IMG/VR virus record: IMGVR_UViG_2617270940_000006
Length of the DNA: 56,409 nucleotides
Strand: one strand, 5' to 3'
Origin: a virus
Taxonomy: Duplodnaviria > Heunggongvirae > Uroviricota > Caudoviricetes
Below the pieces are notes generated by a model that had not been told where the DNA came from, made no database searches, and saw nothing but the letters and a program-made list of their open reading frames with translations. The position numbers were made by a program, and so were the translations under genes. Below, piece by piece: positions 1-56,409 of this stretch (position 1 is the stretch's first letter; the number at the start of each line of letters is the position of its first letter).

Positions 1-906
1 CTATATTTCCAGACACCTGTTATCACTTAACCCATTACTGGCCTGCTGCCGCAGATATTCCCGTGGCGAGCGATAACCCAGTGCACTATGCGGATGCCAT
101 TCGTTATAATGCTCGAACGCCTCTGCAAGGTTCTTTGCTGCCGTTAACCCGTCTGGTTTAGGCATGATACTGATGTAGTCACGCTTTATCGTTTTCACGA
201 AGCTCTCTGCTATGCCGTTACTCTCCGGACTCCGCACCGCCGTGTTCTTCGGTTCAAGCCCCAACATCCGGGCAAACTGCCGTGTTTCATTAGCCCGGTA
301 GCATGAACCATTATCCGTCAGCCACTCTACTGGAGACGCCGGAAGCTCGTTGCCGAAGCGGCGTTCCACCGCTCCCAGCATTACGTCCTGTACTGTTTCA
401 CTGTCGAAGCCGCCCGTAGTGACTGCCCAGTGCAGTGCCTCACGGTCACAGCAGTCCAGCGCGAACGTGACTCGCAGTTTTTCTCCGTTATCACAGCGGA
501 ACTCGAACCCGTCAGAGCACCATCGTTGATTGCTTTCTTTCACGGCCACTTTGCCAGTATGTGCCCGTTTCGATGGCGGTACAGCGGGTTTTCGCTCAAG
601 CAACAGCGCATTCTGGCGCATGATCCGGTAAACACGTTTGGCATTGATCGCAGGCATACCATCAAGTTCGGCCTGTCTGCGAAGCAGCGCCCATACCCGA
701 CGATAACCATACGTGGGCAGCTCTCCGATAACATGGTGTATACGGAGAAGCACATCCGTATCATCTGAGTGACGGCTGCGGCGACCATCTTTCCAGTCAT
801 CGGTTCGTCTGAGAATTACGTGCAACTGCGCACGCGACACCCGGAGACAACGGCTGACTAAGCTTACTCCCCATCCCCGGGCAATAAGGGCGCGTGCGCT
901 ATCCAC
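1..906 (-). CDS. insD: IS2 transposase OrfB (InsD)
   Basis: 301-aa ORF; transposase catalytic core with DDE-type residues; matches recalled IS2 InsD. Confidence 0.9.
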
Positions 907-1229
907 TTTTTTGCACGCCCGTATTCAACGGCTTCTTTAAGGAGTTCATTTTCCATCGTTTTTTTGCCGAGCAGGCGCTGGAGTTCTTTAATCTGCTTCA
1001 TGGCAGCAGCAAGTTCAGAGGCAGGAACGACCTGCTCTCCTGCGGCCACAGCAGTAAGACTTCCCTCCTGGTATTGCTTGCGCCAGAGAAATAACTGGCT
1101 GGCTGCCACACCGTGTTGCCGGGCAACAAGGGAGACCGTCATTCCCGGTTCAAAACTCTGCTGAACAATAGCGATCTTTTCCTGTGTAGTACGCCGTCTG
1201 CGTTTCTCCGGTCCTAAGACATCAATCAT
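864..1229 (-). CDS. insC: IS2 OrfA (InsC)
   Basis: ORF beginning [13 protein letters not shown], overlapping insD as in IS3-family frameshift arrangements; the ORF-track start at 1274 is an upstream extension. Confidence 0.8.
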
Positions 1230-1320
1230 CTGCTCTCCAATGACTAGTCTAAAAACTAGTATTAAGACTATCACTTATTTAAGTGATATTGGTTGTCTGG
1301 AGATTCAGGGGGCCAGTCTA

Positions 1321-1589
1321 GTCTGCGACGTGCCGGCATTGTCAAACCGGTAAAGGCTGTAAAAGCCGTTCCAGTAACAAAAGAAACCACAGGTGCTACA
1401 GTCACTGCAGGTATTGGCCTTGCACAAATTGCTGACGTTATGCCTCAAGTTTCTGCCGCAATGGATAAAGCGCAAGGCAATATCTCCAGTGGAGATACGG
1501 TACGCATCATCTTTGGCGTAGCTACCATTCTTGTGGCAGCATTCATTGCCTGGTCCCAGGTTCGCAAGCACCAGAAAGGATTAGTGTAA
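1321..1589 (+). pseudogene. 3' remnant of a gene interrupted by IS2; C-terminal hydrophobic segment
   Basis: The reading frame runs from inside the IS2 end into flanking DNA and has no plausible own start outside IS2. Predicted C-terminal TM helix (GVATILVAAFIAW). Confidence 0.3.
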
Positions 1590-1591
1590 GT

Positions 1592-1843
1592 ATGTTCGAC
1601 GGCCTGTTGTTCAAAATGAAATCCGCTTTGTTCACTCTGGCCGCCGTCATTCTAGTCCTTGTCGGCGCATACTCCTATGGCGGGTATATGGCCAGACGCA
1701 GTATGGAAGAGAAAGAACGGCGGGAAGATAACAAGCGTCTTCAAAGCACAGTGGAAGTGGTGAATGAGACGAACAGTGAAATACGTCAGAAAGATGCTTC
1801 TGCCATTCATCGTGAGCTGCATGATAAGTGGGTGCGTAATTAA
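1592..1843 (+). CDS. Rz-like i-spanin candidate
   Basis: 83 aa with an N-terminal TM segment followed by a charged coiled-coil-like region; a lipoprotein ORF overlaps its 3' end in another frame. Confidence 0.4.
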   Translation: MFDGLLFKMKSALFTLAAVILVLVGAYSYGGYMARRSMEEKERREDNKRLQSTVEVVNETNSEIRQKDASAIHRELHDKWVRN

Positions 1844-1979
1844 GCCACAGACCACCAGCGTGTTGTTCTGCGATGGCGCTGAACCTATTTATATCAGCAA
1901 TGACGATGTAATGACCGAAGAAACCGAACGCCAAATCCTTTTTCACAATACGATGGGAGAGAGAGTTTGCGGTTGGTGA
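1794..1979 (+). CDS. Rz1-like o-spanin lipoprotein candidate
   Basis: Starts within the preceding gene in a different frame; signal peptide with lipobox (MLLPFIVSCMISGC); short mature peptide. Confidence 0.4.
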   Translation: MLLPFIVSCMISGCVIKPQTTSVLFCDGAEPIYISNDDVMTEETERQILFHNTMGERVCGW

Positions 1980-2011
1980 TGTCGAAGTTCCCCTCAAATG
2001 AGGGGGACACA

Positions 2012-2533
2012 TTATTCTTCGAACAATTTTTCGATAGATTTTGTTGGATAGAACAAAGAACGATCGTTGTTACCAACCAGCTGGATAAAGCCCAAACTTT
2101 TATAAAACGCCCTAGCTTTATCGTTCAACGCCTCAACGAAAAGCCCATGAATGCCTACCGCAAGAGATGCATTGTACACAACACGCATTGCGTGAGTTAC
2201 AAGCATTGAGCCAAGCCCCTGACCTTGAAGAGATTTGTCCAAAGCCAGTCTGCCTAAAGTGATACTTGGGACATTCCGATAAGGCACTTTCTTTTGCTGA
2301 CTCTTTGAAGGTAAGGTTTCTTTCTCAAAGCAGCTGCCTGACAAAGTGTAATAACCTAATACCTTTGGTATTTCTTCTTTAGTGCAAAGCACATAAGCGC
2401 GAAGAATTTTTCCTTCATGCTGTCTTTTTAAGTGGTTGGTCAAAAATGCGTTTAGTGACTCTTCGCCGCAATCAAAACCGTTTAGATCATAATCGTTCTC
2501 TCCAGAGAAAATCTCGATCGTCGTATTGCTCAC
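2012..2533 (-). CDS. GNAT-family acetyltransferase toxin (TacT/AtaT-like)
   Basis: 173 aa with GNAT core motifs (QGQGLGS); directly downstream of a small DUF1778-type partner gene. Confidence 0.8.
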   Translation of the reverse strand: MSNTTIEIFSGENDYDLNGFDCGEESLNAFLTNHLKRQHEGKILRAYVLCTKEEIPKVLGYYTLSGSCFEKETLPSKSQQKKVPYRNVPSITLGRLALDKSLQGQGLGSMLVTHAMRVVYNASLAVGIHGLFVEALNDKARAFYKSLGFIQLVGNNDRSLFYPTKSIEKLFEE

Positions 2534-2810: not shown

Positions 2811-3129
2811 GTGTACCCCCTGATGGCCGGTGATGTAGGAAGGCCATCATTGCTCTCTATTTAAACTGAGTTTTCGACTCAAAGGTTATTTAACTGGGCT
2901 ATAGCCCATTGCGTATGTGTCATCAAATTGTGTACGGCAATTTACCGTACACGTAATATAGAGATGATTGTCACTTTTTTCAACAGACAAATGATAACAA
3001 TTACTAGCAATAGGCAATAACAACCTACTAAATAACCTTTACACCGCAGCCGTAGGCATTTAGGCTATATCGCATATAAGAAAACAAGTTGTTTCATACG
3101 ACAATAATTCACGCAAAGGAAACTCACCA

Positions 3130-3795
3130 ATGACCAAGATCATTGTGGTTGGCGGCACAAAAGGCGGCCCAGGCAAATCTACCGTTGCCCAGCAAATTGC
3201 GGTATGTCTCAAAGTTAAAAAGAAAAAGAAGGTTCACGTCACCGATATCGATATCCAGCGCACCACGACCAGCTGGTGTGAAGACCGTCGCCAGAACGAA
3301 GATCTTGAACTGATCCCGTTCGCTTATGTGCAGGACGACATCGTCAAACATCTTAAATCGCTTCAGGGGCGAACTGATTATGTAGTGGTAGATGCTGGTG
3401 GCTTTGACTCCGAAATTCAGCGTCTGGCGATGCTTATGGCTGATGTAATCATCATCCCGCTGCGCCCTAAACGTCGTGATTTGAAATCTCTGCGTGATAT
3501 CGACCCGATTATCGACAACGTTCGCAATGTGAACGAGAAAGTTAAGATCCGCGCGGTAATAAACCAGTGTCCGTCATTGCCTTCCCAGGTATCACGTATT
3601 CTAGCCGCGAAGGAAATTGTCGAAACTTTCGGCATCGAGGCTGCGCCGGTCAATCTGTACAACCGTAACGTTTATGACGATGCGGAAGAGGCAGGTCGTT
3701 CTATCTTTGAAATGACTGGCGCTGAACGCGATAAGAAGGCAGAAGCCGAGTTCGAAGAGTTTGTAGATTACATCTTGAGTCTGGAGGAAGAATAA
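3130..3795 (+). CDS. parA: ParA-family partition ATPase (small type)
   Basis: Deviant Walker A (GGTKGGPGKST); 221 aa; followed by a small overlapping partner gene. Confidence 0.85.
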   Translation: MTKIIVVGGTKGGPGKSTVAQQIAVCLKVKKKKKVHVTDIDIQRTTTSWCEDRRQNEDLELIPFAYVQDDIVKHLKSLQGRTDYVVVDAGGFDSEIQRLAMLMADVIIIPLRPKRRDLKSLRDIDPIIDNVRNVNEKVKIRAVINQCPSLPSQVSRILAAKEIVETFGIEAAPVNLYNRNVYDDAEEAGRSIFEMTGAERDKKAEAEFEEFVDYILSLEEE

Positions 3796-9571: not shown

Positions 9572-10582
9572 TTAGTCGTAGGATACGGCAAATATCGCCT
9601 GGCCTTGAACTTCCCCAGGCTGTAAAGCTTCCTCTTTCACGCGAACGTATTTTGCGGTAATCGGGAAGATGTACTGTTCCTGAATAGCCGCCATTTTAGG
9701 TAATCTGTTCATCAGGGTATCGCCCAGCTTTAACGGTGTCGTTGCATTACCATTGTAAATCTGGAACCCTACACCCTTAGCACCATCGGACAATGTATTT
9801 TTCAATATTGTTCCACTATCATCCCACACACCACGCTCAACTTTAAAAGTCACTGGATTAGTCGTGACGTTATAGACACTATCGCAATTTAGGACCAGAT
9901 CTACAGAACCTGATTTTGAGTTATTGGCAGATAGCATCTCACTTATCGTTGTTTCTGGTATTCTTATTTCGTAAGTCGGTTGCGAGAAACGACAGGTTGT
10001 GGGTTTGTGTTTAACAGTAATGGTTAGTTTTTGTTCGTAAGCATCGCCTTTATTTAACAACCCCAATAAATTGCACAATATCCATGAAAAAATATTTGAA
10101 CTGCATTGATTATCAGATAAAAAGTTACCCGCTGGCTTTTTTAATTCGAATGAATCCCCCTCTACCGCTTCACCATGATCACTTCTATATGTAGTTGGTG
10201 GTATATATGAGGCCGTTAACTTCAGTTGTTTATTATTAATGGTATCAGCAACAGAATAGGTTTTAGGCGACAGAAGCGAACCACTCGTTTCTACAGGAAA
10301 TCCATCAGCCTCAAGCTTTAATTTAATAAAAATAGACTTATTGCTGGAGCCATCTTTCATTTCAACAATATAGTCATCTAACGTTGTTGCAAAATACATC
10401 TTATCCCCCCTCGAGTTACATTCATAAGATCCTTGCAGGTTGGGATTAAAACTTACTATTGTTGAATCCCTTGTTAAGTCCAGTGTAATTGGTTGAGTTG
10501 CTGTCCAAGTTCCCTTAGGGGTACATTTCGCCTGCCCAAAAAATGGAATAATCAACAAAAACAAAAACCAATATTTCTTCAT
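9572..10582 (-). CDS. Fimbrial minor subunit / tip adhesin candidate
   Basis: Signal peptide (MKKYWFLFLLIIPFFGQA); distal gene of the chaperone-usher operon; start set 11 bp after the usher stop. Confidence 0.55.
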   Translation of the reverse strand: MKKYWFLFLLIIPFFGQAKCTPKGTWTATQPITLDLTRDSTIVSFNPNLQGSYECNSRGDKMYFATTLDDYIVEMKDGSSNKSIFIKLKLEADGFPVETSGSLLSPKTYSVADTINNKQLKLTASYIPPTTYRSDHGEAVEGDSFELKKPAGNFLSDNQCSSNIFSWILCNLLGLLNKGDAYEQKLTITVKHKPTTCRFSQPTYEIRIPETTISEMLSANNSKSGSVDLVLNCDSVYNVTTNPVTFKVERGVWDDSGTILKNTLSDGAKGVGFQIYNGNATTPLKLGDTLMNRLPKMAAIQEQYIFPITAKYVRVKEEALQPGEVQGQAIFAVSYD

Positions 10583-10592
10583 AAAAAATCCT

Positions 10593-13085
10593 TTAACGAC
10601 AAATATAAACTTTATTCTCTTCGATAACTTTATCAAAGGTAATAGTACAGAATTGTTCCTGCTGTTTATTAACCGAGACGCGAATCGATGCGGGAACATC
10701 ATCAGTGCGAATAAATATCCGACTTCCCTGTCCTACCAAGCCCACATTCTTACCGCTTTCATCTTCAACTTCATAACCGAACGATAATGGAGAACCATCC
10801 GGGCGCTGAGCAAGGAAATACCAGGGTTTACGTTTGTCAGTATCAAACTGCGTCATCACAACGGCCCCACGATAAGGAGCGGTGCTTTTACGGTTGCCCA
10901 GTAGTGCCACATCGCTTTGACTGTCAGAAGTATCCAGCATCAACGTGTTTTTACGATACGGCGTCAGGCTGTCATAAATAGCGTAACCTCGGCTATCCGT
11001 GCTCAGGTAACGATACCCCTGTACCGCAGCCCCATCCAGCCCCGGAGCATGGACGATGGTAAATGTATCTGAAAGTCTGGGAGCCAGTGCTATCCCGTCT
11101 GACCACGCGACTAAACCACCTTGAATATTACCACTTATCTGTTGATATTTTTTCGACTGGCTATAGCTGCCACCAATGGTAGCCACTGGCGCACGCCAAA
11201 TCAGATTTCCACCTGCTGTTGCTTCGCTGTCCTGTTGTTGATGGCTAAAGTTAGCCCCGTAGCTGAACTGATCACGGTTCCCAGCTACACCACTGAGGCT
11301 GGTAGTATTTGACTGGTAGCCGTCTTTATCAAATGTGGTCGAGTTAGAGATAAATAAATCTCGTCGTTTTTCGGTGATATTATCACGCCACGAGAAGGGG
11401 ATTGAGAAAAATAAGTTAATGCGTCTGTCTTCGCTGTTATCCTCATCGTATGTCTGGCTAACCGACAAGGTATAACTTAGACGTTCCCATGAGTTCGTAT
11501 AGCTTAGTTGGTAATTTTTCCCTGTCCCGCTACGTTCCCAGTAATCTCGCCATTGACCGCTGATCGCCAGATACCCCCAATTTTCCGGTAATGACTGGTT
11601 GATATTTAAAGAAAAGCTATTCTTGCGACCAAAATCATACTGGTAGTAGTTGGCAATGTCATAGCCTGAGTTGTCTTCTCGATTGTATCTATTTTTGTTA
11701 TTTGCCCATACATGATCGTTAAAAGTACGATAACCCCGAGAGGAATAACGCCAGGCCGCCAGAGAAAATTGTGTTCCGCTCTGAGAGAGATATTTATTCC
11801 AGGCAATCTGATAACTTTGACCGTTAAACACATCACCGTTGTCTTGCTTGCTGTATGAATGGGTAAAATCAACCGATATAGCACCAATCGGTGTATTCCA
11901 TCCTGTTCCAAGAACAAACGATGAGTAATTATCAGATAACAGCGTGCCGCCATAACCTGTCAGCAAATTGTTGAAACCATGCTTATAGCTTCCCTGGATA
12001 AAATCAGATTGATTGCTGGCTCCTTCAATATGACTACGTCCGGCTGAAAATTCATATTTAGAAACGCCAGGTTGCAACATATTTGGCACCGATGAATAAG
12101 GCACCCGATAGTACGACGTTGAACCATCAGCTTCTTTGACGATAACTTCCAAATCTGCCCCACCATTAGAAAGTTGCAAATCATCAATGGCGAATGGGCC
12201 TGGCGGTACTTCTTTCTGGTAAACCACAAAACCATTTTGTTCTATGGTGACGAGTGCGTTACTCTGGGCAACGCCGCGTACCACAGGAGTAAAATTCTGT
12301 TTAGAGTTCGGTAACATCTGCATATCGCGCCAAAGGCGCACGCCGCGAAAACGCACGGAGTCAAAAACATCAGAACCAGTATACATTTCACCTGCGCGAA
12401 ACGTGCCGAGAATTTGTGGAATTCCACGTTCCAGATATAGCGTGTTACTCTTCCATTTACCGCTGTTTTCGTCGCTTTTCGTATAATTGGCATTTGAATG
12501 CAGCTGCCAGCCCAGGAGATTTAACCCACTGTTCAGATTTAGATAGCTACTTTTATCATCTCCGCCGTTTTTATAATCACTGTAATACTGACTGGCATAA
12601 TAAGATGTATATAATGCGTTAATCCCGCGATCCCATGCTTCAGGCGGAACATAGCCATGTTCATATTCCAGAACATAGGCTTGGGGCACGCTTAATTTTA
12701 GGTTAAAATGCCCAATATCATAGTCGACGCTGCCTCCCTGGACAGCATCCCGAAGTGGTACACATTCTACGCCTTTATCGATACTAATTCCTTCAGTGAG
12801 GATCCCAATTTGCTTTAATTGCTCCATGGATAAACATGTTGCATTAGGGTCATCTTTAATATCAATATCATAGTGGCCACGCCATTGATTATTCAGATAA
12901 ACATCCATAGCGTAGATACCCGGCATCGGCTTATCACTATCAATATGGTAGTTAGAAATTTTCTCCCCATTTAAACCACCAATCATAAAATTGGTATTAA
13001 ACGTTTCACCCTTAGCCCATGTATGCGAAGTCGCTAATACTGACAGAATAGCCAGTGTAATAGAATTAAACTTTGACATAACCAA
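10593..13085 (-). CDS. Fimbrial outer-membrane usher
   Basis: 830 aa with signal peptide; size and position between chaperone and adhesin are typical of usher proteins. Confidence 0.9.
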   Translation of the reverse strand: MVMSKFNSITLAILSVLATSHTWAKGETFNTNFMIGGLNGEKISNYHIDSDKPMPGIYAMDVYLNNQWRGHYDIDIKDDPNATCLSMEQLKQIGILTEGISIDKGVECVPLRDAVQGGSVDYDIGHFNLKLSVPQAYVLEYEHGYVPPEAWDRGINALYTSYYASQYYSDYKNGGDDKSSYLNLNSGLNLLGWQLHSNANYTKSDENSGKWKSNTLYLERGIPQILGTFRAGEMYTGSDVFDSVRFRGVRLWRDMQMLPNSKQNFTPVVRGVAQSNALVTIEQNGFVVYQKEVPPGPFAIDDLQLSNGGADLEVIVKEADGSTSYYRVPYSSVPNMLQPGVSKYEFSAGRSHIEGASNQSDFIQGSYKHGFNNLLTGYGGTLLSDNYSSFVLGTGWNTPIGAISVDFTHSYSKQDNGDVFNGQSYQIAWNKYLSQSGTQFSLAAWRYSSRGYRTFNDHVWANNKNRYNREDNSGYDIANYYQYDFGRKNSFSLNINQSLPENWGYLAISGQWRDYWERSGTGKNYQLSYTNSWERLSYTLSVSQTYDEDNSEDRRINLFFSIPFSWRDNITEKRRDLFISNSTTFDKDGYQSNTTSLSGVAGNRDQFSYGANFSHQQQDSEATAGGNLIWRAPVATIGGSYSQSKKYQQISGNIQGGLVAWSDGIALAPRLSDTFTIVHAPGLDGAAVQGYRYLSTDSRGYAIYDSLTPYRKNTLMLDTSDSQSDVALLGNRKSTAPYRGAVVMTQFDTDKRKPWYFLAQRPDGSPLSFGYEVEDESGKNVGLVGQGSRIFIRTDDVPASIRVSVNKQQEQFCTITFDKVIEENKVYICR

Positions 13086-13096
13086 TCCCTGATAAT

Positions 13097-13777
13097 CTAT
13101 TTGGCAGTTTTTATTTTTTCACTCAAATAGTTTCCATGATCATCAATCAGAGTAACATTGTAATAGTTAACAACGGATGTCGTTTTGACAGTCTGATCTG
13201 ACCAGGGTGCCAGCAGTAGTGTCTCCTTATTAATTTTCGCATTCCCGGTTAATTCAGGAATGGTTATCCAGTTCGCTGAATTATTTTTTATGTTAATGCC
13301 TCTATCAACGGGTCTGATATTAATCCGGGAAAAACTCTCTTTATCGACTCTTGTTATACCCTTTGGGCGATAAATAAATTTGATACGATTTTGCATCGCG
13401 AATTTAATCAGATTCTTGCCTTCGTATTTCTCACTATTAGGTGGAATATCCAGTACATTAAGGAAGAACAGACTTTCGCGATCTTTAGGTAGAGTGTTCG
13501 CCAGTTGTTTAATTTTCAGTTGCTGTCCTTCACCCTTACTAACATGAACTACCGGTGGAGTCAGCACAAAAGGTACACTAATCTTTTCCGGAGGAAGGCT
13601 GGCATCGCCATCATCAATCCACGACTGAACAAGAGCACTACGCTCACCTTCATTCATTAACTGAACTGCAATCTCTTTTTTCTGTTCCGGATAAATAACG
13701 CGAGTGCCGTAAATATAGACACCGCCCCACGCAGATGGGACCGTTACGGTTAGTAAGAAGGCTATTAATTTTTTCAT
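13097..13777 (-). CDS. Fimbrial periplasmic chaperone (PapD-like)
   Basis: Signal peptide plus characteristic chaperone length and operon position; start placed at MKKLIAFLL. Confidence 0.85.
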   Translation of the reverse strand: MKKLIAFLLTVTVPSAWGGVYIYGTRVIYPEQKKEIAVQLMNEGERSALVQSWIDDGDASLPPEKISVPFVLTPPVVHVSKGEGQQLKIKQLANTLPKDRESLFFLNVLDIPPNSEKYEGKNLIKFAMQNRIKFIYRPKGITRVDKESFSRINIRPVDRGINIKNNSANWITIPELTGNAKINKETLLLAPWSDQTVKTTSVVNYYNVTLIDDHGNYLSEKIKTAK

Positions 13778-13832
13778 GATAACAATCCTTGCGATTGAAA
13801 ATCGGCGACCGAAGCCGCCGATAAACATCATG

Positions 13833-14381
13833 TTAATCTGTTACAACGGTCATTGTTATCGCAGAACTAACTTCGCCAGTACCCACATCATCAGCTGCTT
13901 TTGCGTATTGCGCCGTAAAATGCAACTCATATTCACCATTAGTAGCTGGTGGTAACTTAATAGGACTATTACCAGAAATCCGGTTGCTAGAATCAGTACC
14001 TTTCCCCAAAAAAACAGCGAAACCGACACCGCTAGCATCACCAGTATTGCGAGTAACATTTGAACCCGTTCCTTCAAATTGGGTGCTGGAGAAGGTAATT
14101 CTTGGTTCTTTTTCTCCGGGACATTTAACTTTTAGTGGTAAAGATGTTGTATTTGAATAAGTGGTAACGGGGGAGCCAACTTCTACATTTTCAAATTGAT
14201 CACGACCAATTTCGCTCATCGAAATTGTTGTATTCTCACTACCGCTCAGGAACTGACATGTAGTCTCTGTGACTTTACCGTTAATAGTTAACTGACCCTC
14301 TGTACTCCCTTCTGCTGCAAATGATCCTGCGCTCATAAAAAGAGATGCTAATACAGTAGCCGCAATAACTGAACGTTTCAT
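13833..14381 (-). CDS. Major fimbrial subunit
   Basis: 182 aa, signal peptide, Cys pair, first gene of the operon. Confidence 0.8.
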   Translation of the reverse strand: MKRSVIAATVLASLFMSAGSFAAEGSTEGQLTINGKVTETTCQFLSGSENTTISMSEIGRDQFENVEVGSPVTTYSNTTSLPLKVKCPGEKEPRITFSSTQFEGTGSNVTRNTGDASGVGFAVFLGKGTDSSNRISGNSPIKLPPATNGEYELHFTAQYAKAADDVGTGEVSSAITMTVVTD

Positions 14382-20452: not shown

Positions 20453-20524
20453 GATGGTGTAGCTCAGTGGTAGAGCGGTTGACTGTTAATCAACTGGTCG
20501 GTGGTTCGAGTCCACCCACCATCG
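20453..20524 (+). tRNA. tRNA-Asn (anticodon GTT)
   Basis: Hand-folded cloverleaf: 7-bp acceptor stem (GATGGTG/CACCATC), D-stem GCTC/GAGC, anticodon stem GTTGA/TCAAC with loop CTGTTAA, T-arm GGTGG-TTCGAGT-CCACC. Confidence 0.85.
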
Positions 20525-20681
20525 CCGACATAGCGCTGAACGGTTTGGATTCGCCACCACCGTCCGAACGAAAGACTCCGCAAATGTCGCCAGACCGTTC
20601 AGCGCTGTGATAGACACGGCAGACGTTTTTTTAACCATTGCTTCTAAGCATCGTAGCAACACTTTTTTCAGCGCAAAATCC

Positions 20682-27408: not shown

Positions 27409-30400
27409 ATGAAGGCTCTGATGGTCAGAACTGACTTCTCCCTGGGAGAGTCAGCTCTAAAAGCAGAAAACGCGGTAAAAATCGCAAGAGACGCTGGCTA
27501 CACGGCTGTCATTTCCGCCGACAGCATGAATATTGCCAGTGTAATCCCTCTGCAACGTGCCGCTGGCGACGACATGTCGGTAATTTGTGGCGTTAAGCTG
27601 AATGTTGTCGACGATCCGACATACGAGCACCGCGCTCGCTTGGCGAAAGAGTCAGGAAGATGTATGGAATCATTAGTTCGTGATCGCAGCTACTGCTTCA
27701 CGGCACTGATAAAGAATGAACAAGGTTATCGCGACGTGTGCGAACTGATGACCTTAGCGAACAAGCGCGAGCAATTCTACTTTGTCCCGCGTCTGGCGCT
27801 TGAGCAGCTGACAGCCGCATATGCCAAAGGCAACATCATCCTGCTGACGTCCGACATTGGCAGTGTATTCCAGCGCCGGGACTTCGCAAAAATTATCGGG
27901 ACGCTGGTCACAGCTGGCGGTCGCGATAACTTCTACAGCGTGGTTTATCCGCACCCTACCCCATTCTACGACCAGATTAACGTCCGGGCGATGAAAGTGG
28001 CGAGCGCACTGAAAATAGAGCCAGTGGCGTTCTATCCCGCTTATTACGAAGCGATCGACGACGCTGACATTAAAGACATTGCGCACATGGTTACGAACAA
28101 CATCAAAATCGACCAGCCGCATCGTCTGCGCATCCCCCACCAGCGAGATAACGCTGTTAATGGTCGTCGCCATCTCCTTGAAGCGCTGAAAGCCTTCTCC
28201 GTTCGCATGGGCGTACCGGTAACAGCTGCAATGGCCTCAACAACGCAGGACACCATTATTGAAGCCTGCACATGGCGCTGGCATGAACTGCCACCAGCAC
28301 TGCCCAAGATGGCAGACGACGAGCCTGCAACGCTGATGAAGCTGGCTGTCGCGGGGCTACGCAAGCGTCTAACTACTAAAGAGTTTGGCTACACACCACC
28401 GGCTTCTGAGCACCGAGTGTATGTTGAGCGACTGAAGTACGAAATGGACACGCTGACCCGCCTGGGCTTCTGTGGCTACTTCCTGATGGTGCGCGACCTG
28501 ATGAATCACAGCCGTGAAACTGGCATTCCTGTCGGGCCAGGTCGTGGTTCCTCTGCCGGTTCTCTGGTGGCGTGGTGCATAGGCATAACCAACGTCGATC
28601 CTATCCGTCACGGTCTTCTGTTTGAGCGTTTCATCAACCCTGAACGTCTTGACTTACCGGATGCGGATCTGGACTTCAGCCAGGCACGTCGTCATGAGGT
28701 GATCGAGTATCTGAATGAACGCTATGGCGAAGATTACGTTGCCGGTATTCCAAACTTCACCTATCTGGGCGCCGCTTCTGCGCTGCGAGACACTGCGCGT
28801 ATTTACGGTGTCGACGCTGCGGATATGGCGGTATCCAAAGAGTTCAAGAATCTGGAAGACGATAGCCTATCTCTGGAAGAGCTGCGCGAACAACTGGCCA
28901 GCCTGGACAAATACACCACGAAAAACCCGGAAGCGTTCAAAGCGGCGTGTAAGCTACAAAGCCTGATGCGTGGTTTTGGCCGTCATGCAGCGGGGATGAT
29001 CGTCGCTGGCGTTCCACTGGTAGAGCGCACGCCCGTCGAGCTGCGTGGCAACGCTCGCTGTATTGCATTCGATAAACGTTACTGCGAGGCAATGGGGCTG
29101 ATTAAGCTGGACGTTCTCGGTCTGGCAACGCTCGATCTGCTGGATAGCGCGAAACGCTACATCAAAGAGAGTACCGGGGAAGACATCAATCTCGATGCTA
29201 TCCCACTGGACGATCGCAAAGTTCTGGATGGGTTCGCTGCAGGGTACACTCAGGGCGTATTCCAGCTGGAGTCCGGCCCCATGCGCAAGCTGCTTAAAGA
29301 TCTGGGCGGTGGCATTGAGCCAATGAGCTTCAAAACCGTTGTCGCCACGACCGCACTCTTCCGACCTGGCCCGATTCAATCAGGCATGTTGGACGACTAT
29401 GTCTCCGTGGCCAAAGGCTTCATGGCTCCACATTCAATTCATCCGCGTCTTGAGGAAGTCACCCGGGAGACTAATGGTGTTTTGCTCTATCAGGAACAAA
29501 TCATGCAAAGTTCCCGAGTACTTGCCGGGTTCTCTATGGCCGAAGCAGACGCTCTGCGTTCCGCTATCGGTAAAAAGAACATGGATAAGATGAAAGCGAT
29601 CGGCAGCGATTTTGTAGAACGAGCACAAGCAGGCTGGGTGACACTGTCACTCAAAAATGGAGGTACTGTAGAGGTTCACAAACACGCAAAACTGGATTGC
29701 TCAGACGGTAAGCGTAGAAGCTACAGCGAGGCTATTAGTGACGGCATAGACTACGTGGAGATCGTCTCTGAACAAGAAGGTCTCAGTAAGGAAAAAGCCC
29801 AAGAAATATGGGACGCCTTTGAGAAGTTCGGTGGATATGCCTTCAACAAATCACACAGCGTTGCTTATTCTTTAATCAGCTATCAGTCTATGTGGTTAAA
29901 GACACATTACCCTGCTGAGTTCTTCGCTGCTGCGCTCACCATTCTGGGCGAGGATAAGCACCAGGGCTTAGTTAAAGATGCGCTGACCTATGGCATTCGC
30001 GTATTGCCACCAGACGTTAACGTGTCATCTAACCGAATTGAGATCCGCACGCTGGAAGACGGCAGTCAGGTTCTGTATGCACCATTCTCTGCTGTGAAGG
30101 GCTGCTCTGAGAATGGTTGCCAGGCCATCATGAGAGCGCGTGAGAAAGTTGGCGGCAAATTCGAGTCACTTGAGCAATTTGAGGAAGCGGTCGAGAAGCG
30201 TGCATGTAACAGCCGGGTACGCGAATCACTGCAAAAAGTCGGTGCGTTCGCATCGATTGAGTCTGGCAGTCTGCCAGCGACAGATCCGGAACGGCTGCGC
30301 GACCAGGCAGAGTTGATGGGTAATCTGGTGATCGACGCTGTAAAAGCCTCTCGACCGTTCGAGATGACCCCTAAGCGCTCTGCTGAAGTAAATGTACTGA

Positions 30401-30915
30401 TGACGCGCATGGCGGCCGAAATGGGGCTGGGAGACGATCTAATCCGTCCAAGCATTGGTATTAAGCCAAAAATCATGGTTATTCTGGACAACGCGAACGG
30501 CAATGATGGGCGTACCGGCTACTTCATGGAGAACGGTTACGACGACTTTAAGGCGAAGTTGCTTACTGCCGGCGATCTGCGTATGGGCGATCTCTACGTC
30601 ACCGGCGTGTGTAAAAAGGTGAAGGACAAAGAGAAGGACTACACCAAAGACGAGATCGGTCAGTTCACCGACTTTATGCGTGAAGAGATCAATCTGGTGC
30701 GTCCGACCTATGTACTGACGTGTGGCAGCCGGGCGACGTCGCTCTTCAACAACAAGAGCAAACCATCCGACCTGGTTGGACGCAAAGAGTATCTGCCGGA
30801 GCTGGATGCGACCGTTTTCTACGGATTTAACCCGAATATCCTTTACTTCCGACCGGAAGAAGGAGAGCGACTGGAGGCCATTCTGACTGATATTGCGGAG
30901 ACGATAAATAAGTAA
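27409..30915 (+). CDS. DNA polymerase III alpha-like replicative polymerase
   Basis: 1168 aa; N-terminal PHP-like region and polymerase core (GPGRGSSAGSLVAW) typical of DnaE-family enzymes. Confidence 0.9.
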   Translation: MKALMVRTDFSLGESALKAENAVKIARDAGYTAVISADSMNIASVIPLQRAAGDDMSVICGVKLNVVDDPTYEHRARLAKESGRCMESLVRDRSYCFTALIKNEQGYRDVCELMTLANKREQFYFVPRLALEQLTAAYAKGNIILLTSDIGSVFQRRDFAKIIGTLVTAGGRDNFYSVVYPHPTPFYDQINVRAMKVASALKIEPVAFYPAYYEAIDDADIKDIAHMVTNNIKIDQPHRLRIPHQRDNAVNGRRHLLEALKAFSVRMGVPVTAAMASTTQDTIIEACTWRWHELPPALPKMADDEPATLMKLAVAGLRKRLTTKEFGYTPPASEHRVYVERLKYEMDTLTRLGFCGYFLMVRDLMNHSRETGIPVGPGRGSSAGSLVAWCIGITNVDPIRHGLLFERFINPERLDLPDADLDFSQARRHEVIEYLNERYGEDYVAGIPNFTYLGAASALRDTARIYGVDAADMAVSKEFKNLEDDSLSLEELREQLASLDKYTTKNPEAFKAACKLQSLMRGFGRHAAGMIVAGVPLVERTPVELRGNARCIAFDKRYCEAMGLIKLDVLGLATLDLLDSAKRYIKESTGEDINLDAIPLDDRKVLDGFAAGYTQGVFQLESGPMRKLLKDLGGGIEPMSFKTVVATTALFRPGPIQSGMLDDYVSVAKGFMAPHSIHPRLEEVTRETNGVLLYQEQIMQSSRVLAGFSMAEADALRSAIGKKNMDKMKAIGSDFVERAQAGWVTLSLKNGGTVEVHKHAKLDCSDGKRRSYSEAISDGIDYVEIVSEQEGLSKEKAQEIWDAFEKFGGYAFNKSHSVAYSLISYQSMWLKTHYPAEFFAAALTILGEDKHQGLVKDALTYGIRVLPPDVNVSSNRIEIRTLEDGSQVLYAPFSAVKGCSENGCQAIMRAREKVGGKFESLEQFEEAVEKRACNSRVRESLQKVGAFASIESGSLPATDPERLRDQAELMGNLVIDAVKASRPFEMTPKRSAEVNVLMTRMAAEMGLGDDLIRPSIGIKPKIMVILDNANGNDGRTGYFMENGYDDFKAKLLTAGDLRMGDLYVTGVCKKVKDKEKDYTKDEIGQFTDFMREEINLVRPTYVLTCGSRATSLFNNKSKPSDLVGRKEYLPELDATVFYGFNPNILYFRPEEGERLEAILTDIAETINK

Positions 30916-37515: not shown

Positions 37516-39945
37516 ATGGATCATAGTGTACATAACAAGCTCATCTCATTTATTTGGAACATTGCCGACGACTGTTTACGTGATGTGTACGTTCGCGGTA
37601 AGTACCGCGATGTGATTTTACCTATGGTGGTATTACGACGTTTAGATACGTTACTTGAACCCACCAAAGAAGCCGTGCTTGAAGAGGTCAAGTTCCAAAA
37701 AGAAGAGATGCAAGCCACGGAGCTTGATGATGAACCATTGAAGGCGGCTAGTGGTTATGTTTTTTACAATACATCTAAATGGACCCTGAAATCCCTGTTC
37801 AACACCGCAACGAATAACCAACAGATATTACTCGCCAACTTTGAAGAGTACCTGCTTGGCTTTAGCGATAATGTTAAAGAAATCATTGAATGCTTTAACC
37901 TCAAGTTGCAAATTCGTCACATGGCCTCAAAGCAAGTCCTTCTTGATGTCGTCGAAAAGTTTGTTTCCCCTTACATCAACTTAACTCATGAAACGGTCGA
38001 AGACCCAGATGGCAACAAGATGCCAGCCCTTACTAACCTGGGTATGGGGTACGTGTTCGAAGAGTTGATCCGTAAGTTCAACGAGGAGAATAACGAAGAA
38101 GCCGGTGAGCACTTTACACCTAGGGAAGTGATTGAGCTGATGACACACTTGGTTTTTGACCCAGTGAAAGAGCAGCTACCATTGACCATGACCGTTTACG
38201 ACCCTGCGTGTGGTAGCGGTGGTATGCTCACTGAATCTCAAAACTTCATTGAAGAGAAATACCCGAACGACAGCCGAGATATTTACCTTTACGGCAAAGA
38301 GATCAATGACGAGACCTACGCGATTTGTAAATCGGACATGATGATCAAAGGTAACAACCCTGAGAACATCAAGGTAGGCTCAACCTTGTCTACCGACGAG
38401 TTTGCGGCTTCTCGCTTTGACTTTATGTTGTCTAACCCGCCATACGGTAAGAGTTGGGCGTCTGAACAGAAGTACATTAAAGACGGCAGTGATGTGATTG
38501 ACCCGCGTTTTAAGGTTAGCCTGAAAGACTATTGGGGAAATCTCGAAGTGGTGGATGCCACGCCACGTTCGAGTGATGGCCAGCTGCTTTTCTTAATGGA
38601 GATGGTCAACAAGATGAAAGATCCGAGCGTAAGTCCATTAGGCAGCCGGATTGCCTCTGTTCATAACGGCTCATCGCTCTTTACCGGTGATGCGGGCAGT
38701 GGCGAAAGTAATATTCGTCGCTTCATCATTGAAAACGACATGCTAGATGCCATCGTTCAGTTACCTAATAACCTGTTCTATAACACTGGCATTACCACTT
38801 ACATTTGGGTGTTGAACAACAATAAACCTGAGGCGCGTAAAGGTAAGGTGCAATTAATTGATGCCAGCTTGCTCTACCGTAAGTTGCGCAAGAACTTAGG
38901 TAACAAAAACTGCGAATTTGCGCCTGAGCACATCACGGAAATTACCGATACTTACCTCGCGTGTAAGGATGTTGAAAGAGCACTGGATGCAAACAATGAT
39001 CCTGTTGGCATCGCCAGTAAGGTATTCAGCAATGACGATTTTGGCTACTACAAAGTCACTATAGAGCGCCCAGATCGCCGCAAAGCCAAGTTTACTCAAG
39101 ACGCAATAGCCCCACTGCGTTTTGATAAGCAACTTAGTGAAGTGATGGAGTACGTGTACGCAGAGCACGGCGAACGTGTTTACGAAAAAACTGGCTACGG
39201 GTCAGCTCAGAAAAAGAGCTTCTTAAAATCCATCGAGAAAGACATTCTTTCTTGGTGTGAAGATAACGACATCAGTCTCAATGCTAAGGCTAAGGCCAAA
39301 CTGCTTGATGTGAAACACTGGCTGGCGCTAAAAGCATTGCTTGAAACTGCACAAACGCTGATGGCTGACATCGGTAGCATTGAATTTGATGACTTCAATA
39401 GCTTTAAAACCCAAGTTGATAAATCGCTAAAAGCCCATGCTATTAAGCTTTCAGCACCTGAGAAAAATGCCATTCTTCACGCGGTGAGCTGGTATGACGA
39501 AACCGCCAAGAAAGTGGTTAAAAAGGTAGTTAAATTAACGGGTGATAAATTAAACGACCTGCTGGAGCGCTATGAGTGTGAAGTCGCTGACTTGCCAGAT
39601 TTTGGTTATTACCCCGTTCCTTCAGCAGAAGGCGGTAAAAAAGGCGAGTATATCACTTACGAGACCAATTCAGACCTGCGAGATACAGAATCTGTTCCAT
39701 TAAAGCAAAGCATTTACCAGTACTTCCTAGATGAAGTGAAGCCTCATGTCGATGAAGCATGGATAAACCTAGATACGGTAAAAATTGGCTATGAAATCAG
39801 CTTCAATAAGTATTTCTACCGTCATAAACCGCTGCGTAGTTTAGAAGAGGTCGCAACCGACATCATCAACCTAGAACAAAAAGCCGAAGGTCTCATTGCG
39901 CAGATATTGGGTGTTAAAGTGGCGGAAGCTCAGGGAGAAGCGTAA
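37516..39945 (+). CDS. hsdM: Type I restriction-modification methyltransferase subunit (HsdM), unusually long
   Basis: Motif I DPACGSGGML and motif IV NPPYG; about 810 aa from the ATG at 37516. Confidence 0.9.
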   Translation: MDHSVHNKLISFIWNIADDCLRDVYVRGKYRDVILPMVVLRRLDTLLEPTKEAVLEEVKFQKEEMQATELDDEPLKAASGYVFYNTSKWTLKSLFNTATNNQQILLANFEEYLLGFSDNVKEIIECFNLKLQIRHMASKQVLLDVVEKFVSPYINLTHETVEDPDGNKMPALTNLGMGYVFEELIRKFNEENNEEAGEHFTPREVIELMTHLVFDPVKEQLPLTMTVYDPACGSGGMLTESQNFIEEKYPNDSRDIYLYGKEINDETYAICKSDMMIKGNNPENIKVGSTLSTDEFAASRFDFMLSNPPYGKSWASEQKYIKDGSDVIDPRFKVSLKDYWGNLEVVDATPRSSDGQLLFLMEMVNKMKDPSVSPLGSRIASVHNGSSLFTGDAGSGESNIRRFIIENDMLDAIVQLPNNLFYNTGITTYIWVLNNNKPEARKGKVQLIDASLLYRKLRKNLGNKNCEFAPEHITEITDTYLACKDVERALDANNDPVGIASKVFSNDDFGYYKVTIERPDRRKAKFTQDAIAPLRFDKQLSEVMEYVYAEHGERVYEKTGYGSAQKKSFLKSIEKDILSWCEDNDISLNAKAKAKLLDVKHWLALKALLETAQTLMADIGSIEFDDFNSFKTQVDKSLKAHAIKLSAPEKNAILHAVSWYDETAKKVVKKVVKLTGDKLNDLLERYECEVADLPDFGYYPVPSAEGGKKGEYITYETNSDLRDTESVPLKQSIYQYFLDEVKPHVDEAWINLDTVKIGYEISFNKYFYRHKPLRSLEEVATDIINLEQKAEGLIAQILGVKVAEAQGEA

Positions 39946-41267
39946 TGGAGCGTTTAGCATTGATGCCGAAATATGAGGATTATGTAGATTCTGGAGTTGA
40001 ATGGTTAGGGGATTTACCGAGCCATTGGGACGCAGTAAAAATGAAGTTTCTTTTCAAAGATACGTCGATGAAAAACAAGCCTAACGAAACTTTATTATCT
40101 GTTACACAAAGTCAAGGTGTTGTTCCCAGAGAGTGGGTAGAAAACAGAATGGTTATGCCATCTGGCAATCTAGAAAGCTTCAAGTTCATTGCAAAAGGTG
40201 ACTTTGCTATAAGCCTTCGTTCCTTTGAAGGTGGTTTGGAGTATTGTCATCATGATGGAATCATAAGCCCTGCTTATACGGTGTTAAAAACTAAGAAAGA
40301 TTATCTACTTGCAGGATATTACAAATATTTGTTTAAAAGTCAGACTTTTATTTCAGAGTTACAAACATCGATTGTAGGGATTCGTGAAGGAAAAAACATC
40401 AGTTATGAGGAGTTGCAATATTCACTTCTTCCTATTCCGGCTGAAGAAGAACAAACCCGTATCGCCAACTTCCTCGACAAGAAAACCGCTCTAATCGACG
40501 AAGCGATTTCGATCAAAGAGCAGCAAATTAGCCTGCTGAAAGAGCGTAAGCAGATCATCATCCAACAGGCGGTGACCCAAGGGCTTGATCCCAATGTGCC
40601 AATGAAAGACTCCGGTGTGGATTGGATTGGAGATATTCCAGAGCATTGGGAAGTTGTGCCTCTAAAAAGGTTGGCGGTCTTGAGCCCTTCTGTGAAAGTT
40701 TCAAATAGAAAGTCCAAAGAATTAGTTACTTTCTTAGCGATGGAAAAGGTTTCAACAGATGGATTTATTGATCAAGATACATTAATGCCTATATGTGATG
40801 TGAGCCAAGGTTTTACGGTTTTTAACCGGGGGGATGTGATTGTTGCAAAAATTACACCTTGCTTTGAAAATGGGAAATCTGCTTGGCTTAACAATCTTCA
40901 AACTGAGTTTGGATACGGCTCAACCGAGTTTCACGTTTTAAGATGTGGTCAGAGAATTATAGGAAGTTTTCTCTACTTAATCGTTAGTTCGCCCCTTTTT
41001 CTTAATGCCGGTGAGGCTATGATGACTGGTTCAGCTGGTCAGAAGCGCGTGCCTAGTTCATTTATCCAAAACTTTCCTACCGCAATTCCCGGAGTTGCAG
41101 AGCAAGAAAAAATAGTATCAAAGGTAAAAGAGCTGTTTTCACAGATTGATGTTGTTGTGGCTTCTACGGTAAATCAAATCGAAAAGCTCAAAGAATACAA
41201 AACCACCCTGATCAACAGCGCCGTGACAGGAAAAATAAAAATCACCCCGGAAATGGTTGAGCAATAG
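39945..41267 (+). CDS. hsdS: Type I restriction-modification specificity subunit (HsdS)
   Basis: 440 aa with two repeated target-recognition-like halves and conserved central/C-terminal helices; start overlaps the hsdM stop. Confidence 0.8.
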   Translation: MERLALMPKYEDYVDSGVEWLGDLPSHWDAVKMKFLFKDTSMKNKPNETLLSVTQSQGVVPREWVENRMVMPSGNLESFKFIAKGDFAISLRSFEGGLEYCHHDGIISPAYTVLKTKKDYLLAGYYKYLFKSQTFISELQTSIVGIREGKNISYEELQYSLLPIPAEEEQTRIANFLDKKTALIDEAISIKEQQISLLKERKQIIIQQAVTQGLDPNVPMKDSGVDWIGDIPEHWEVVPLKRLAVLSPSVKVSNRKSKELVTFLAMEKVSTDGFIDQDTLMPICDVSQGFTVFNRGDVIVAKITPCFENGKSAWLNNLQTEFGYGSTEFHVLRCGQRIIGSFLYLIVSSPLFLNAGEAMMTGSAGQKRVPSSFIQNFPTAIPGVAEQEKIVSKVKELFSQIDVVVASTVNQIEKLKEYKTTLINSAVTGKIKITPEMVEQ

Positions 41268-54072: not shown

Positions 54073-54808
54073 CTTGAGCCGCACGCAGTTTTTGCAGATG
54101 TTTGCCGTGATGCAGTCTATAAAGCTGATAAACAACCATACAGCAAAAGTAACTCCGCCTGCACTTTTGTGGAAAAACGTAAACATCAGCGATGACCAGT
54201 TCTCGGTATTAACCAATCTATTGTCATCGACTCCTTTGATGCCGAGCTTGGCTAATCTGCCGTCAGGAAGCACTGCGCCGATCCTTATTAATCCATTTAC
54301 GGAAGGTGGATATCTCCCACATTCTGGGCCGGGGTTCGTTGTGATTCCTGAAACCGGAACGCTGAACATCCAAGAAAATGCACTCTTCAATGCAATGGAG
54401 ACGCACATCAGCACCGCATTCACTAATCTGATTCGACACGCTAACGCACGCGCGGATCACGTTGCAATGCCGGGTGCTGCCTTCGCCAGCTTCTCTGTTG
54501 ACTATGACCGGCACGCGCCAATTTCAAAGCGGGCGAAACTCTGCTTTTACGAGGAGGGATGTGAAGTAGCGATTATTGAAGTTCTTCTCCCCCATGTATT
54601 CAGCGCGAATGAAACGGCTGCACACCATCTGATCGACATCATGCGGCATTTCATCGGCCAGAGCATGATCGATGCAGACATTGCTGCAGGCGTTCTAACC
54701 AACGATAGCATTCACGTTGTTAGCGACATTCCGAAGCCGCCAACTCGAGAGCCGGAAAAGACACTTGAACAGAAACTAATGGAATGCCCAACCTGGGCTA
54801 CGTGGTAA
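54062..54808 (+). CDS. Hypothetical protein
   Basis: 248-aa ORF whose start overlaps the sbcC-like stop. Confidence 0.45.
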   Translation: MSFNLSRTQFLQMFAVMQSIKLINNHTAKVTPPALLWKNVNISDDQFSVLTNLLSSTPLMPSLANLPSGSTAPILINPFTEGGYLPHSGPGFVVIPETGTLNIQENALFNAMETHISTAFTNLIRHANARADHVAMPGAAFASFSVDYDRHAPISKRAKLCFYEEGCEVAIIEVLLPHVFSANETAAHHLIDIMRHFIGQSMIDADIAAGVLTNDSIHVVSDIPKPPTREPEKTLEQKLMECPTWATW

Positions 54809-54819
54809 GGAGACCAAAA

Positions 54820-55560
54820 GTGAGAGGAAGAGCGACAAAATTAAGAAAAGATGCGAAACCTATCAATCCCGACGATTTCGACGGAAATTTCATTAGAGAG
54901 TTGGAGCCAATATTTGATTCAAGGGGGCGTAAGCGCCGAATTGTTGAGCTTGAATGCTTTATCTGCGGTCATCGATTCTCTGCAAACCTTGAGAACGCGA
55001 AGCGAGTCAGACAGAAGACCTGCTCAAACAAATGTGCCGGAATATATCGCCAGAACGCAGAATATAAAGTCATGGAAAACCCTCTGTACTGGACTTGGTC
55101 AAGTATGAAGGCGCGTTGTAACAATCCAAATCGGGCAAGATACGAAAAGTATGGTGGACGGGGAATATCTTACGCCACCGAGTTCGAGGATTTTGATAAT
55201 TTTTACAGGTATGTTTCCGTACTTGAGAGCTATCCGTTTTCCGATACGGAGAGAGTTGTAGAGGGGGTTACGCTTGATCGCATCGACTCCAGCAAGGGAT
55301 ATGAACCAGGGAATCTGAGGTGGGCTGACAAGCACGTCCAGAGTGCAAATAAACAAGGGAAAGTGGATGGTAGTACGTCGAAGTTTACTGGCGTTCATTA
55401 CTGCAAAACGAACAAGGTTTGGGTTGCTAGAGTTGTGTGGAAAGGAGAGTGTGTCTTCTTGTATCAATGTCACGATGAATTGGAGGCTTACTTAGCGCGT
55501 AAGCGATTTATCGAAGAGCACAATCTACCGCATTTTGTTGAAATGGAGGTCACAGAGTGA
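54820..55560 (+). CDS. DNA-binding protein with zinc-ribbon and AP2-like domains
   Basis: CxxC...C segment, WSSMKARCNNPN...YGGRGI block and C-terminal AP2-like segment (GVHYCKTNKVWVARV); GTG start after AAGGAG. An upstream ATG at 54784 is an alternative start. Confidence 0.4.
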   Translation: MRGRATKLRKDAKPINPDDFDGNFIRELEPIFDSRGRKRRIVELECFICGHRFSANLENAKRVRQKTCSNKCAGIYRQNAEYKVMENPLYWTWSSMKARCNNPNRARYEKYGGRGISYATEFEDFDNFYRYVSVLESYPFSDTERVVEGVTLDRIDSSKGYEPGNLRWADKHVQSANKQGKVDGSTSKFTGVHYCKTNKVWVARVVWKGECVFLYQCHDELEAYLARKRFIEEHNLPHFVEMEVTE

Positions 55561-55988
55561 AAAAAGTAATCAAAGTTGCAGGTCTCGATCCATCTCTGTC
55601 AAATTTTGGCGTTGCCATCGGAGAAATAGAACTGGATTCAGGTGCATTGCAGGTCAATAAGTTGCATCTCATTGAGACGAAAGCTGGTGATACGAAAAAG
55701 CAAGTTCGCGTTAACAGTGACGATATGCGGCGGTTGAACGAGATTTGGCGTGGTATTAAGCCACTGATTGACCAAGTTCATTTAGTGTTCTGTGAACTGC
55801 CAGTAGGCAGTCAATCTGCTAGAGCGATGGTTTCTTATGGTGGTTGTCTTGGCGTACTGGCGTGTGTGGATAAGCCACTGATACAGGTCACGCCAAACGA
55901 GATTAAGTACTATGTCGGGAATAAGCTGACTACGTCGAAAGAAGAGATCATTCAGTGGGCTACGCAGGTAATGACTCCAACTTATTGA
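55557..55988 (+). pseudogene. RuvC-like Holliday-junction resolvase, 3' end replaced by IS1
   Basis: N-terminal GLDPSLSNFGVAIGE and internal blocks collinear with the RuvC family; the last 7 codons and stop lie inside the IS1 terminal repeat. Confidence 0.6.
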
Positions 55989-56409
55989 TAGTGTTTTATG
56001 TTCAGATAATGCCCGATGACTTTGTCATGCAGCTCCACCGATTTTGAGAACGACAGCGACTTCCGTCCCAGCCGTGCCAGGTGCTGCCTCAGATTCAGGT
56101 TATGCCGCTCAATTCGCTGCGTATATCGCTTGCTGATTACGTGCAGCTTTCCCTTCAGGCGGGATTCATACAGCGGCCAGCCATCCGTCATCCATATCAC
56201 CACGTCAAAGGGTGACAGCAGGCTCATAAGACGCCCCAGCGTCGCCATCGTGCGTTCACCGAATACGTGCGCAACAACCGTCTTCCGGAGCCTGTCATAC
56301 GCGTAAAACAGCCAGCGCTGGCGCGATTTAGCCCCGACGTATCCCCACTGTTCGTCCATTTCCGCGCAGACGATGACGTCACTGCCCGGCTGTATGCGCG
56401 AGGTTACCG
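55967..56409 (-). mobile_element. IS1, partial (continues beyond the window)
   Basis: GGTAATGACTCCAACTTATTGATAGTGTTTTATG matches the recalled IS1 end; InsB reading frame present. Confidence 0.95.
55982..56359 (-). CDS. insB: IS1 transposase InsB reading frame
   Basis: [88 protein letters not shown] matches recalled IS1 InsB. Confidence 0.9.

Follow-up and report, generated by a model that had tools for sequence, protein, structure and literature searches.

The window analysed here (56,409 nt) is the entire draft contig JNPB01000087.1 of Escherichia coli 2-052-05_S4_C3 (GCA_000703445.1), and both of its ends are insertion sequence (IS) junctions inside phage genes. At the left end, a copy of IS2 abuts the 3′ remnant of an endolysin gene, which is followed by a pair of overlapping genes for spanin-like proteins and a terminator-like hairpin. 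At the right end, the gene of a RuvC-like Holliday-junction resolvase is cut by IS1 after codon 137. The coordinates of these features are collected in Table 1; they bear out an earlier note on this DNA, which had placed IS2 directly upstream of a spanin-like pair.

Table 1. Features at the two ends of the window, with coordinates and supporting matches.
Feature	Coordinates	Strand	Details
IS2 isoform (IS3 family)	1..1320	-	1320 of 1331 nt; gap-free, 95.8% identity to K-12 IS2A
IS2 orfB (InsD-like, 301 aa, DDE/rve)	1..906	-	Pfam HTH_21, rve, rve_3; 906 nt, as K-12 insD1
IS2 orfA (InsC-like, 121 aa, HTH)	864..1229	-	366 nt, the length of K-12 insC1
Endolysin 3′ remnant (pseudogene fragment)	1321..1589	+	nt 425-693, codons 142-230 plus stop; collinear with WP_024172707
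GTCTG	1321..1325		putative copy of the target duplication, if IS2 arrived by simple insertion; second copy beyond the contig
Rz-like inner-membrane spanin (83 aa)	1592..1843	+	phrog_1026 'Rz-like spanin', 4.2e-22; N-terminal membrane helix
Rz1-like outer-membrane lipoprotein spanin (71 aa)	1764..1979	+	phrog_1275, 2.9e-25; lipobox ISGC, Cys24
Terminator-like hairpin	1987..2008	+	9-bp stem, 6 GC pairs; -22.7 kcal/mol, z = -3.7
RuvC-like Holliday-junction resolvase gene, 5′ part	55557..55967	+	codons 1-137 of 189; phrog_159, 1.7e-53
IS1	55968..56409	-	442 nt, terminal inverted repeat to contig end; begins GGTAATGACTCCAAC

An IS2 isoform that looks intact occupies the first 1320 nt of the window, on the minus strand. 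These nucleotides were aligned with the reverse complement of K-12 IS2A (NC_000913.3, 381260-382590), of which they cover IS2 positions 1-1320. The two copies have the same length register without indels, orfA and orfB of equal sizes and an identical left terminal repeat, and the window copy lies within a gene, as does the K-12 copy in yaiX; it differs from IS2A by a divergence of 4.2%, which makes it an isoform. Other IS2 copies of E. coli, thousands in number and many of them annotated as IS3 family transposase, are 99.6-99.9% identical to it. Both reading frames of the element are open, consecutive and overlapping; the orfA frame is open from 864 to 1274, and its ATG at 1229 begins a protein starting MIDVLGPEK. 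The left inverted repeat is complete and ends at 1320, and the right inverted repeat lacks its outermost 11 nt (TGGATTTGCCC) because the contig starts there. In K-12, IS2A is bordered on both sides by a 5-bp direct duplication (ATTAC).

IS-free relatives are collinear with the window exactly from position 1321, which is nt 425 of a 693-nt gene. The break between IS2 and the gene falls between nt 424 and 425, in codon 142 of 230, and this boundary is unambiguous because base 1320, the last base of IS2, is an A in the window and a G in the relatives. From 1321 onwards, pYUXYEH3934-1 is 100% identical, and pCUVET18-789.1 and many other 106-113-kb IncFIB records labelled as plasmids are 99-99.7% identical. 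The SSU5-like phages Cyrano and CMS-2020a show 86-87% identity to the window, and a further relative, a contig of a MAG labelled Bacillota (L007), also carries the gene without interruption. A search of complete plasmids and E. coli genomes for the same IS2 junction returned no record with a query coverage of 80% or more, and viral contigs scanned for an exact match to it gave none.

The uninterrupted allele encodes a protein of 230 aa (WP_024172707), which bears the label 'membrane protein' in its record. [quoted passage not shown] Trp79, Tyr95 and Glu131 of the Enc34 enzyme correspond to W75, Y86 and E121, the last being the glutamate of a RHENG motif that is conserved in the IS-free allele. 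A membrane helix at aa 199-223, recognized as a hydrophobic window, is followed by the basic tail RKHQKGLV. Among endolysins, Enc34 ORF39 and the homologous M4Lys are unusual in joining a PHA02564 muramidase domain at the N-terminus to a membrane domain at the C-terminus, and their degradation of peptidoglycan has been shown experimentally (PMC8943055, PMC7143992). The IS-free allele resembles Enc34 ORF39 and M4Lys of Salmonella phage BSPM4 in aligning across the entire catalytic domain and in its C-terminal hydrophobic helix and basic tail; as in Enc34, the gene has that of a small membrane protein on one side and overlapped Rz and Rz1 genes on the other. By homology, the interrupted gene is an endolysin of the Enc34/M4Lys type, with an N-terminal PHA02564 muramidase domain, a C-terminal membrane anchor and a predicted lytic activity. 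The earlier note had set reconstruction from an IS-free relative as its check, and the reconstructed gene proves to be lysis-related, homologous to the endolysins of Enc34 and M4Lys.

In contrast to Enc34 and M4Lys, only the C-terminal 89 codons of the gene are kept in the window, adjoining IS2. W75, Y86 and E121 are all encoded 5′ of codon 142 and are absent from the window; the N-terminal PHA02564 catalytic domain with its conserved glutamate, present in the IS-free allele, is missing, and the 5′ part of the gene was found nowhere in the window. The membrane helix and the basic tail are both retained. The window copy is a remnant consisting of linker and anchor, not a functional endolysin. 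The claim that the open reading frame ending at 1589 has no start outside IS2 holds for the homologous frame, since a TTG at 1293, within IS2, is the sole start from which all of the homologous stretch would be read; taken literally it fails, as there are internal ATGs at 1440 and 1461. The 98-aa reading frame with the TTG start had no exact match in the protein collection. The GenBank reading frame begins at 1461, and its product (KDV80157.1, 42 aa, 'putative transmembrane domain protein') corresponds to the tail end of the disrupted Enc34-type endolysin.

The two genes downstream of the remnant have intact reading frames and form a two-component spanin pair, for which a C-terminal interaction of the partners and disruption of the outer membrane are predicted. 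In the Rz protein, which is conserved in Cyrano and in L007, a hydrophobic window (aa 4-34) is combined with a periplasmic domain that is charged. In the signal peptide of Rz1, the lipobox is accompanied by a basic n-region and a hydrophobic core. Its gene lies in the +1 frame, overlaps the final 80 nt of Rz and extends beyond it. Cyrano (about 86% DNA identity) and L007 (about 83%) both preserve the Rz1 reading frame together with the lipobox, which argues that Rz1 is a real gene; it is unannotated in most records, annotated too short in Cyrano and absent from the large protein collection. The earlier note had described the pair both as overlapped and as having the lipobox reading frame embedded; the first description stands, and an embedded, lambda-like layout is ruled out because Rz1 ends 136 nt past the end of Rz, which makes the pair overlapped and P2-like. 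As in the overlapped spanins P2 LysB/LysC and Enc34 ORF40/41, an inner-membrane protein with an N-terminal helix is combined with a +1-frame lipoprotein gene that starts inside its partner and ends beyond it, and the pair directly follows the endolysin. The proteins of the window differ from these spanins in that both are short and Rz is without cysteine, and their spanin function is a predicted one.

The gene order in the relatives is tail fibre genes, a gene for a 107-aa protein, endolysin, Rz and Rz1. The 107-aa protein has a C-terminal membrane helix, belongs to phrog_5093 (function unknown) and is a holin candidate; in phage Cyrano, the four genes are annotated as Holin, Endolysin, Rz and Rz1. 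The lysis cassette that had been suspected to be disrupted thus consists of holin-like gene, endolysin, Rz and Rz1, and the interrupted gene is its endolysin. The strong hairpin that follows Rz1 marks the end of the operon; facing it is a GNAT/DUF1778 toxin-antitoxin pair, with the GNAT toxin gene (2012-2533, minus strand) convergent to Rz1. No outward-facing promoter-like site was found between IS2 and Rz, and the idea that IS2 drives transcription of the remnant or the spanins was rejected on this ground.

The remainder of the window is collinear with pCUVET18-789.1 (NZ_CP115313.1) from position 47,777 backwards through the origin to 107,249. This half carries repA, parA with its partner and two toxin-antitoxin pairs (GNAT/DUF1778 and Phd/Doc), together with genes for a helicase, a primase, DnaE, a ligase, a type I restriction-modification system and a fimbrial operon. 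Each of the other 48 reference genes in this half has its full length, among them repA, parA with its partner and both toxin-antitoxin pairs. The structural, packaging and lysis-proximal half of the relatives (~59 kb) lies outside the window, in which neither the holin nor any structural or packaging gene was found. Judged by gene content and by a backbone collinear with known members, the window is the half of an SSU5-like phage-plasmid that serves replication and maintenance. The IS1 copy at its right end starts exactly at the terminal repeat (55968) and matches IS1 copies in two relatives (L012 and L015); its junction had no match among the complete plasmids and E. coli genomes searched.

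The catalytic and the anchoring part of the endolysin no longer share one reading frame. Very probably, IS2 in the endolysin gene of this SSU5-like phage-plasmid separates the catalytic from the anchor domain, and the element has lost its own endolysin. In the mechanism proposed here, the IS2 copy between nt 424 and 425 would part the muramidase domain from the membrane domain, leaving no single polypeptide with both. Full-length M4Lys lyses E. coli, whereas its isolated catalytic domain breaks down purified peptidoglycan without lysing cells, even together with the neighbouring lysis protein, and its membrane domain alone is bacteriostatic only and causes no lysis (PMC7143992). Because each half of M4Lys fails to lyse, neither part of the endolysin would be expected to lyse cells alone, and we infer that the element has lost autonomous lysis. 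Late transcription would then reach the intact Rz and Rz1 genes poorly, and their expression from the late promoter is probably low, because 1.3 kb of antisense IS2 without an outward promoter-like site lies in between. The predicted polarity on Rz/Rz1 has the absence of consensus promoters as its sole basis.

The element would thereby spread mainly or only as a plasmid. Such plasmid-only propagation, raised in the earlier note, is plausible; co-resident prophages could nevertheless provide lysis in trans. Persistence as a plasmid would be possible because the genes for replication, partition and addiction are intact. The cut in the resolvase gene is a second hit and adds to the likelihood that the element is phage-defective.

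The same endolysin gene is disrupted elsewhere. At least five independent disruptions of its 693 nt are visible in public data, at nt ~350, 425, ~512, 609 and ~637. Besides the window, they comprise, in a metagenome contig, an IS903-like element near nt 350; a deletion reaching from the large terminase gene to an endpoint at nt ~512, seen in one relative (L008) and in five plasmids of PLSDB; at nt 609, an IS2-like element of opposite orientation in four relatives (L012, L014, L015 and L018), which are 230-250-kb plasmids and a chromosome; and, near nt 637, an element of the IS91 family. As a rule the gene is conserved, also in pHCM2 of S. Typhi.

Two accounts of how the window came to end in IS2 are about equally likely and would look alike from this contig, which begins inside the element. 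There is an even chance that IS2 made a simple insertion into an otherwise complete phage-plasmid and that the 5′ part of the endolysin gene, the holin gene and the ~59-kb half are located on other contigs beyond IS2. When IS2 transposes, a simple insertion is the most common result, and contigs from short-read assemblers normally break in multicopy repeats; the window is a whole draft contig with both ends in multicopy IS elements. The other genes are intact and 99% identical to those of full-size relatives, which suggests recent events. This account predicts a sequence ending in GAAGAAGGTCTG, joined to the right end of IS2 (TGGATTTGCCCC), with a duplication of GTCTG. Against it stands that the junction occurs in no complete plasmid or genome searched, and that the predicted N-terminal endolysin::IS2 read-through product (171 aa; fragments of 141-156 aa) has no exact entry in the protein collection. 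Such misses in an exact look-up are weak evidence, partial genes at contig ends being rarely recorded.

The second account, which we hold to be a real possibility though short of even, is that the window is a 55-kb half left between IS2 and IS1 after a deletion or cointegration, with the structural genes gone and the remainder a plain plasmid segment. It is consistent with the window being exactly the plasmid-like half, bounded by two different insertion sequences that cut phage genes. Comparable rearrangements exist in relatives: non-phage DNA lies upstream of the IS2-like element at nt 609, the deletion from the large terminase gene ends in the same gene, and in pYUXYEH3934-1 a tail fibre gene is truncated by IS26. 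However, the account is without direct evidence from this genome, two simple insertions would give identical-looking ends, and the endolysin gene is truncated in just 9 of the 195 PLSDB records that carry it. Whether by simple insertion, deletion or cointegration, the endolysin is knocked out.

It is unlikely that lysis is nevertheless retained, either by an N-terminal fragment (aa 1-143 plus 28 aa of IS2 read-through) that is soluble and passes via the holin or by resident prophages, and that the element is still spread as a phage. All mapped catalytic residues precede the break, and a fragment of aa 1-143, which would keep them, might act if the holin holes are large. Other inducible prophages are usually present in E. 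coli strains as well. M4Lys deprived of its membrane domain does degrade purified peptidoglycan, but cells were not lysed by it, even when the neighbouring lysis protein was included (PMC7143992). Moreover, the crystallised domain loses its last ~8 residues through the break, the 5′ fragment itself is putative, and a second phage gene, that of the RuvC-like resolvase, is also cut. The idea that an IS2 copy from elsewhere was misjoined to the phage-plasmid during assembly, with the gene really intact, is highly improbable: IS2 is multicopy and a draft contig that runs 1320 nt into a repeat is unusual, but the join lies in mid-gene and coincides with the outermost base of the IS2 inverted repeat, a position to be expected if the element transposed but not if the assembly were chimeric, and the IS1 end is equally precise.

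Loss of the element's own endolysin would fit a known pattern. Defective derivatives of phage-plasmids, such as P1-like plasmids without lysis or tail genes, have been described (Pfeifer and Rocha 2024, PMC10879196), and a non-inducible SSU5-like element has been reported (PMC9600943). Like the defective P1-like plasmids, the element in the window has kept its replication, partition and addiction genes and has a lytic-cycle gene inactivated; it differs from them in belonging to the SSU5/pHCM2 group and not to the P1 group. The disruption of a lysis gene of a prophage or phage-plasmid by an insertion sequence is a routine and already known way in which such elements become defective.

The finding is useful as annotation: KDV80157.1 is an endolysin tail, the Rz1 gene is unannotated, and the contig is not to be listed among functional phage-plasmids. 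Together with the other truncated alleles, it adds a small data point on the decay of SSU5-like phage-plasmids into plasmids. That the endolysin is a recurrent first casualty on the way from an SSU5-like phage-plasmid to a plain plasmid, with this contig as a freshly caught intermediate that is otherwise still intact within the window, is a tentative and rather doubtful proposal; if it is true, the recurrent hits in the endolysin gene would point to selection against self-lysis in widespread enterobacterial elements.

The 693-nt endolysin gene has been broken independently in other lineages, namely in the metagenome contig L009, in five further sequences (L008 and L012/L014/L015/L018), and in the PLSDB plasmid matches H88 and H134-H136. 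The interruptions lie at four places in the gene and comprise three insertion elements and one deletion, at whose endpoint the gene is joined to a short remnant (140 nt) of tail-fibre sequence and to the gene for the large terminase. A truncated copy was present in 9 of the 195 PLSDB records that carry the gene. Downstream, Rz1 is not annotated in the RefSeq plasmids or in the source contig, and the record of the SSU5-like phage Cyrano (L002) calls it from an internal GTG 3' of the lipobox, which yields a product of 39 aa. The 71-aa Rz1 product was not found in a collection of 15 billion proteins. An SSU5-like lysis cassette with partition genes also occurs on a 10.5-kb contig (L007, JAEWTL010000041.1) placed in a metagenome-assembled genome labelled Bacillota, where it is probably a binning contaminant.

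Positions of features in the window and in related sequences
Feature	Sequence and position	Strand	Position in endolysin gene	Call or match
Rz1	window 1764-1979
Rz1 as called in Cyrano	L002 5539-5658
tRNA-Lys, 81 nt	window 3118-3198	minus		ARAGORN
Complete chaperone-usher fimbrial operon (YehD-like subunit, chaperone, usher, adhesin-like protein)	window 9575-14381
tRNA-Asn	window 20453-20526	plus		ARAGORN
DnaE-like polymerase	window 27409-30912
Unaligned DnaE-like stretch	window 29604-29809
Type I specificity subunit	window 39945-41264
HNH homing endonuclease, 258 aa, intact ORF	window 54784-55560			phrog_374, 2e-36
RuvC-like resolvase gene and IS1	window 55557-56409
IS903-like element	L009 1-200		about nt 350
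Deletion endpoint	L008 9800-10010		about nt 512
IS2-like element	L012/L014/L015/L018 about 2600-3920		nt 609
IS91-family element			about nt 637

The type I restriction-modification locus is a specificity swap: its specificity subunit is only 65% identical to that of the relative, which is otherwise 98-99% identical, and the adjoining R and M subunits exceed 99% identity. Compared with the relative, the DnaE-like polymerase reaches 93.9% identity and includes a local mosaic segment, a stretch of ~200 bp left unaligned by megablast. The phage-plasmid backbone also houses a complete fimbrial operon. The tRNA-Lys call overlaps the start of parA on the opposite strand and looks doubtful.

The close relative pCUVET18-789.1 lacks 418 bp of the HNH homing-endonuclease ORF (window 54820-55237). 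At the second contig end, IS1 begins at 55968, precisely with its terminal repeat. It breaks, after codon 137 of 189, a gene for a RuvC-like Holliday-junction resolvase (phage protein family phrog_159, 1.7e-53), which makes two IS strikes on phage genes within one element.
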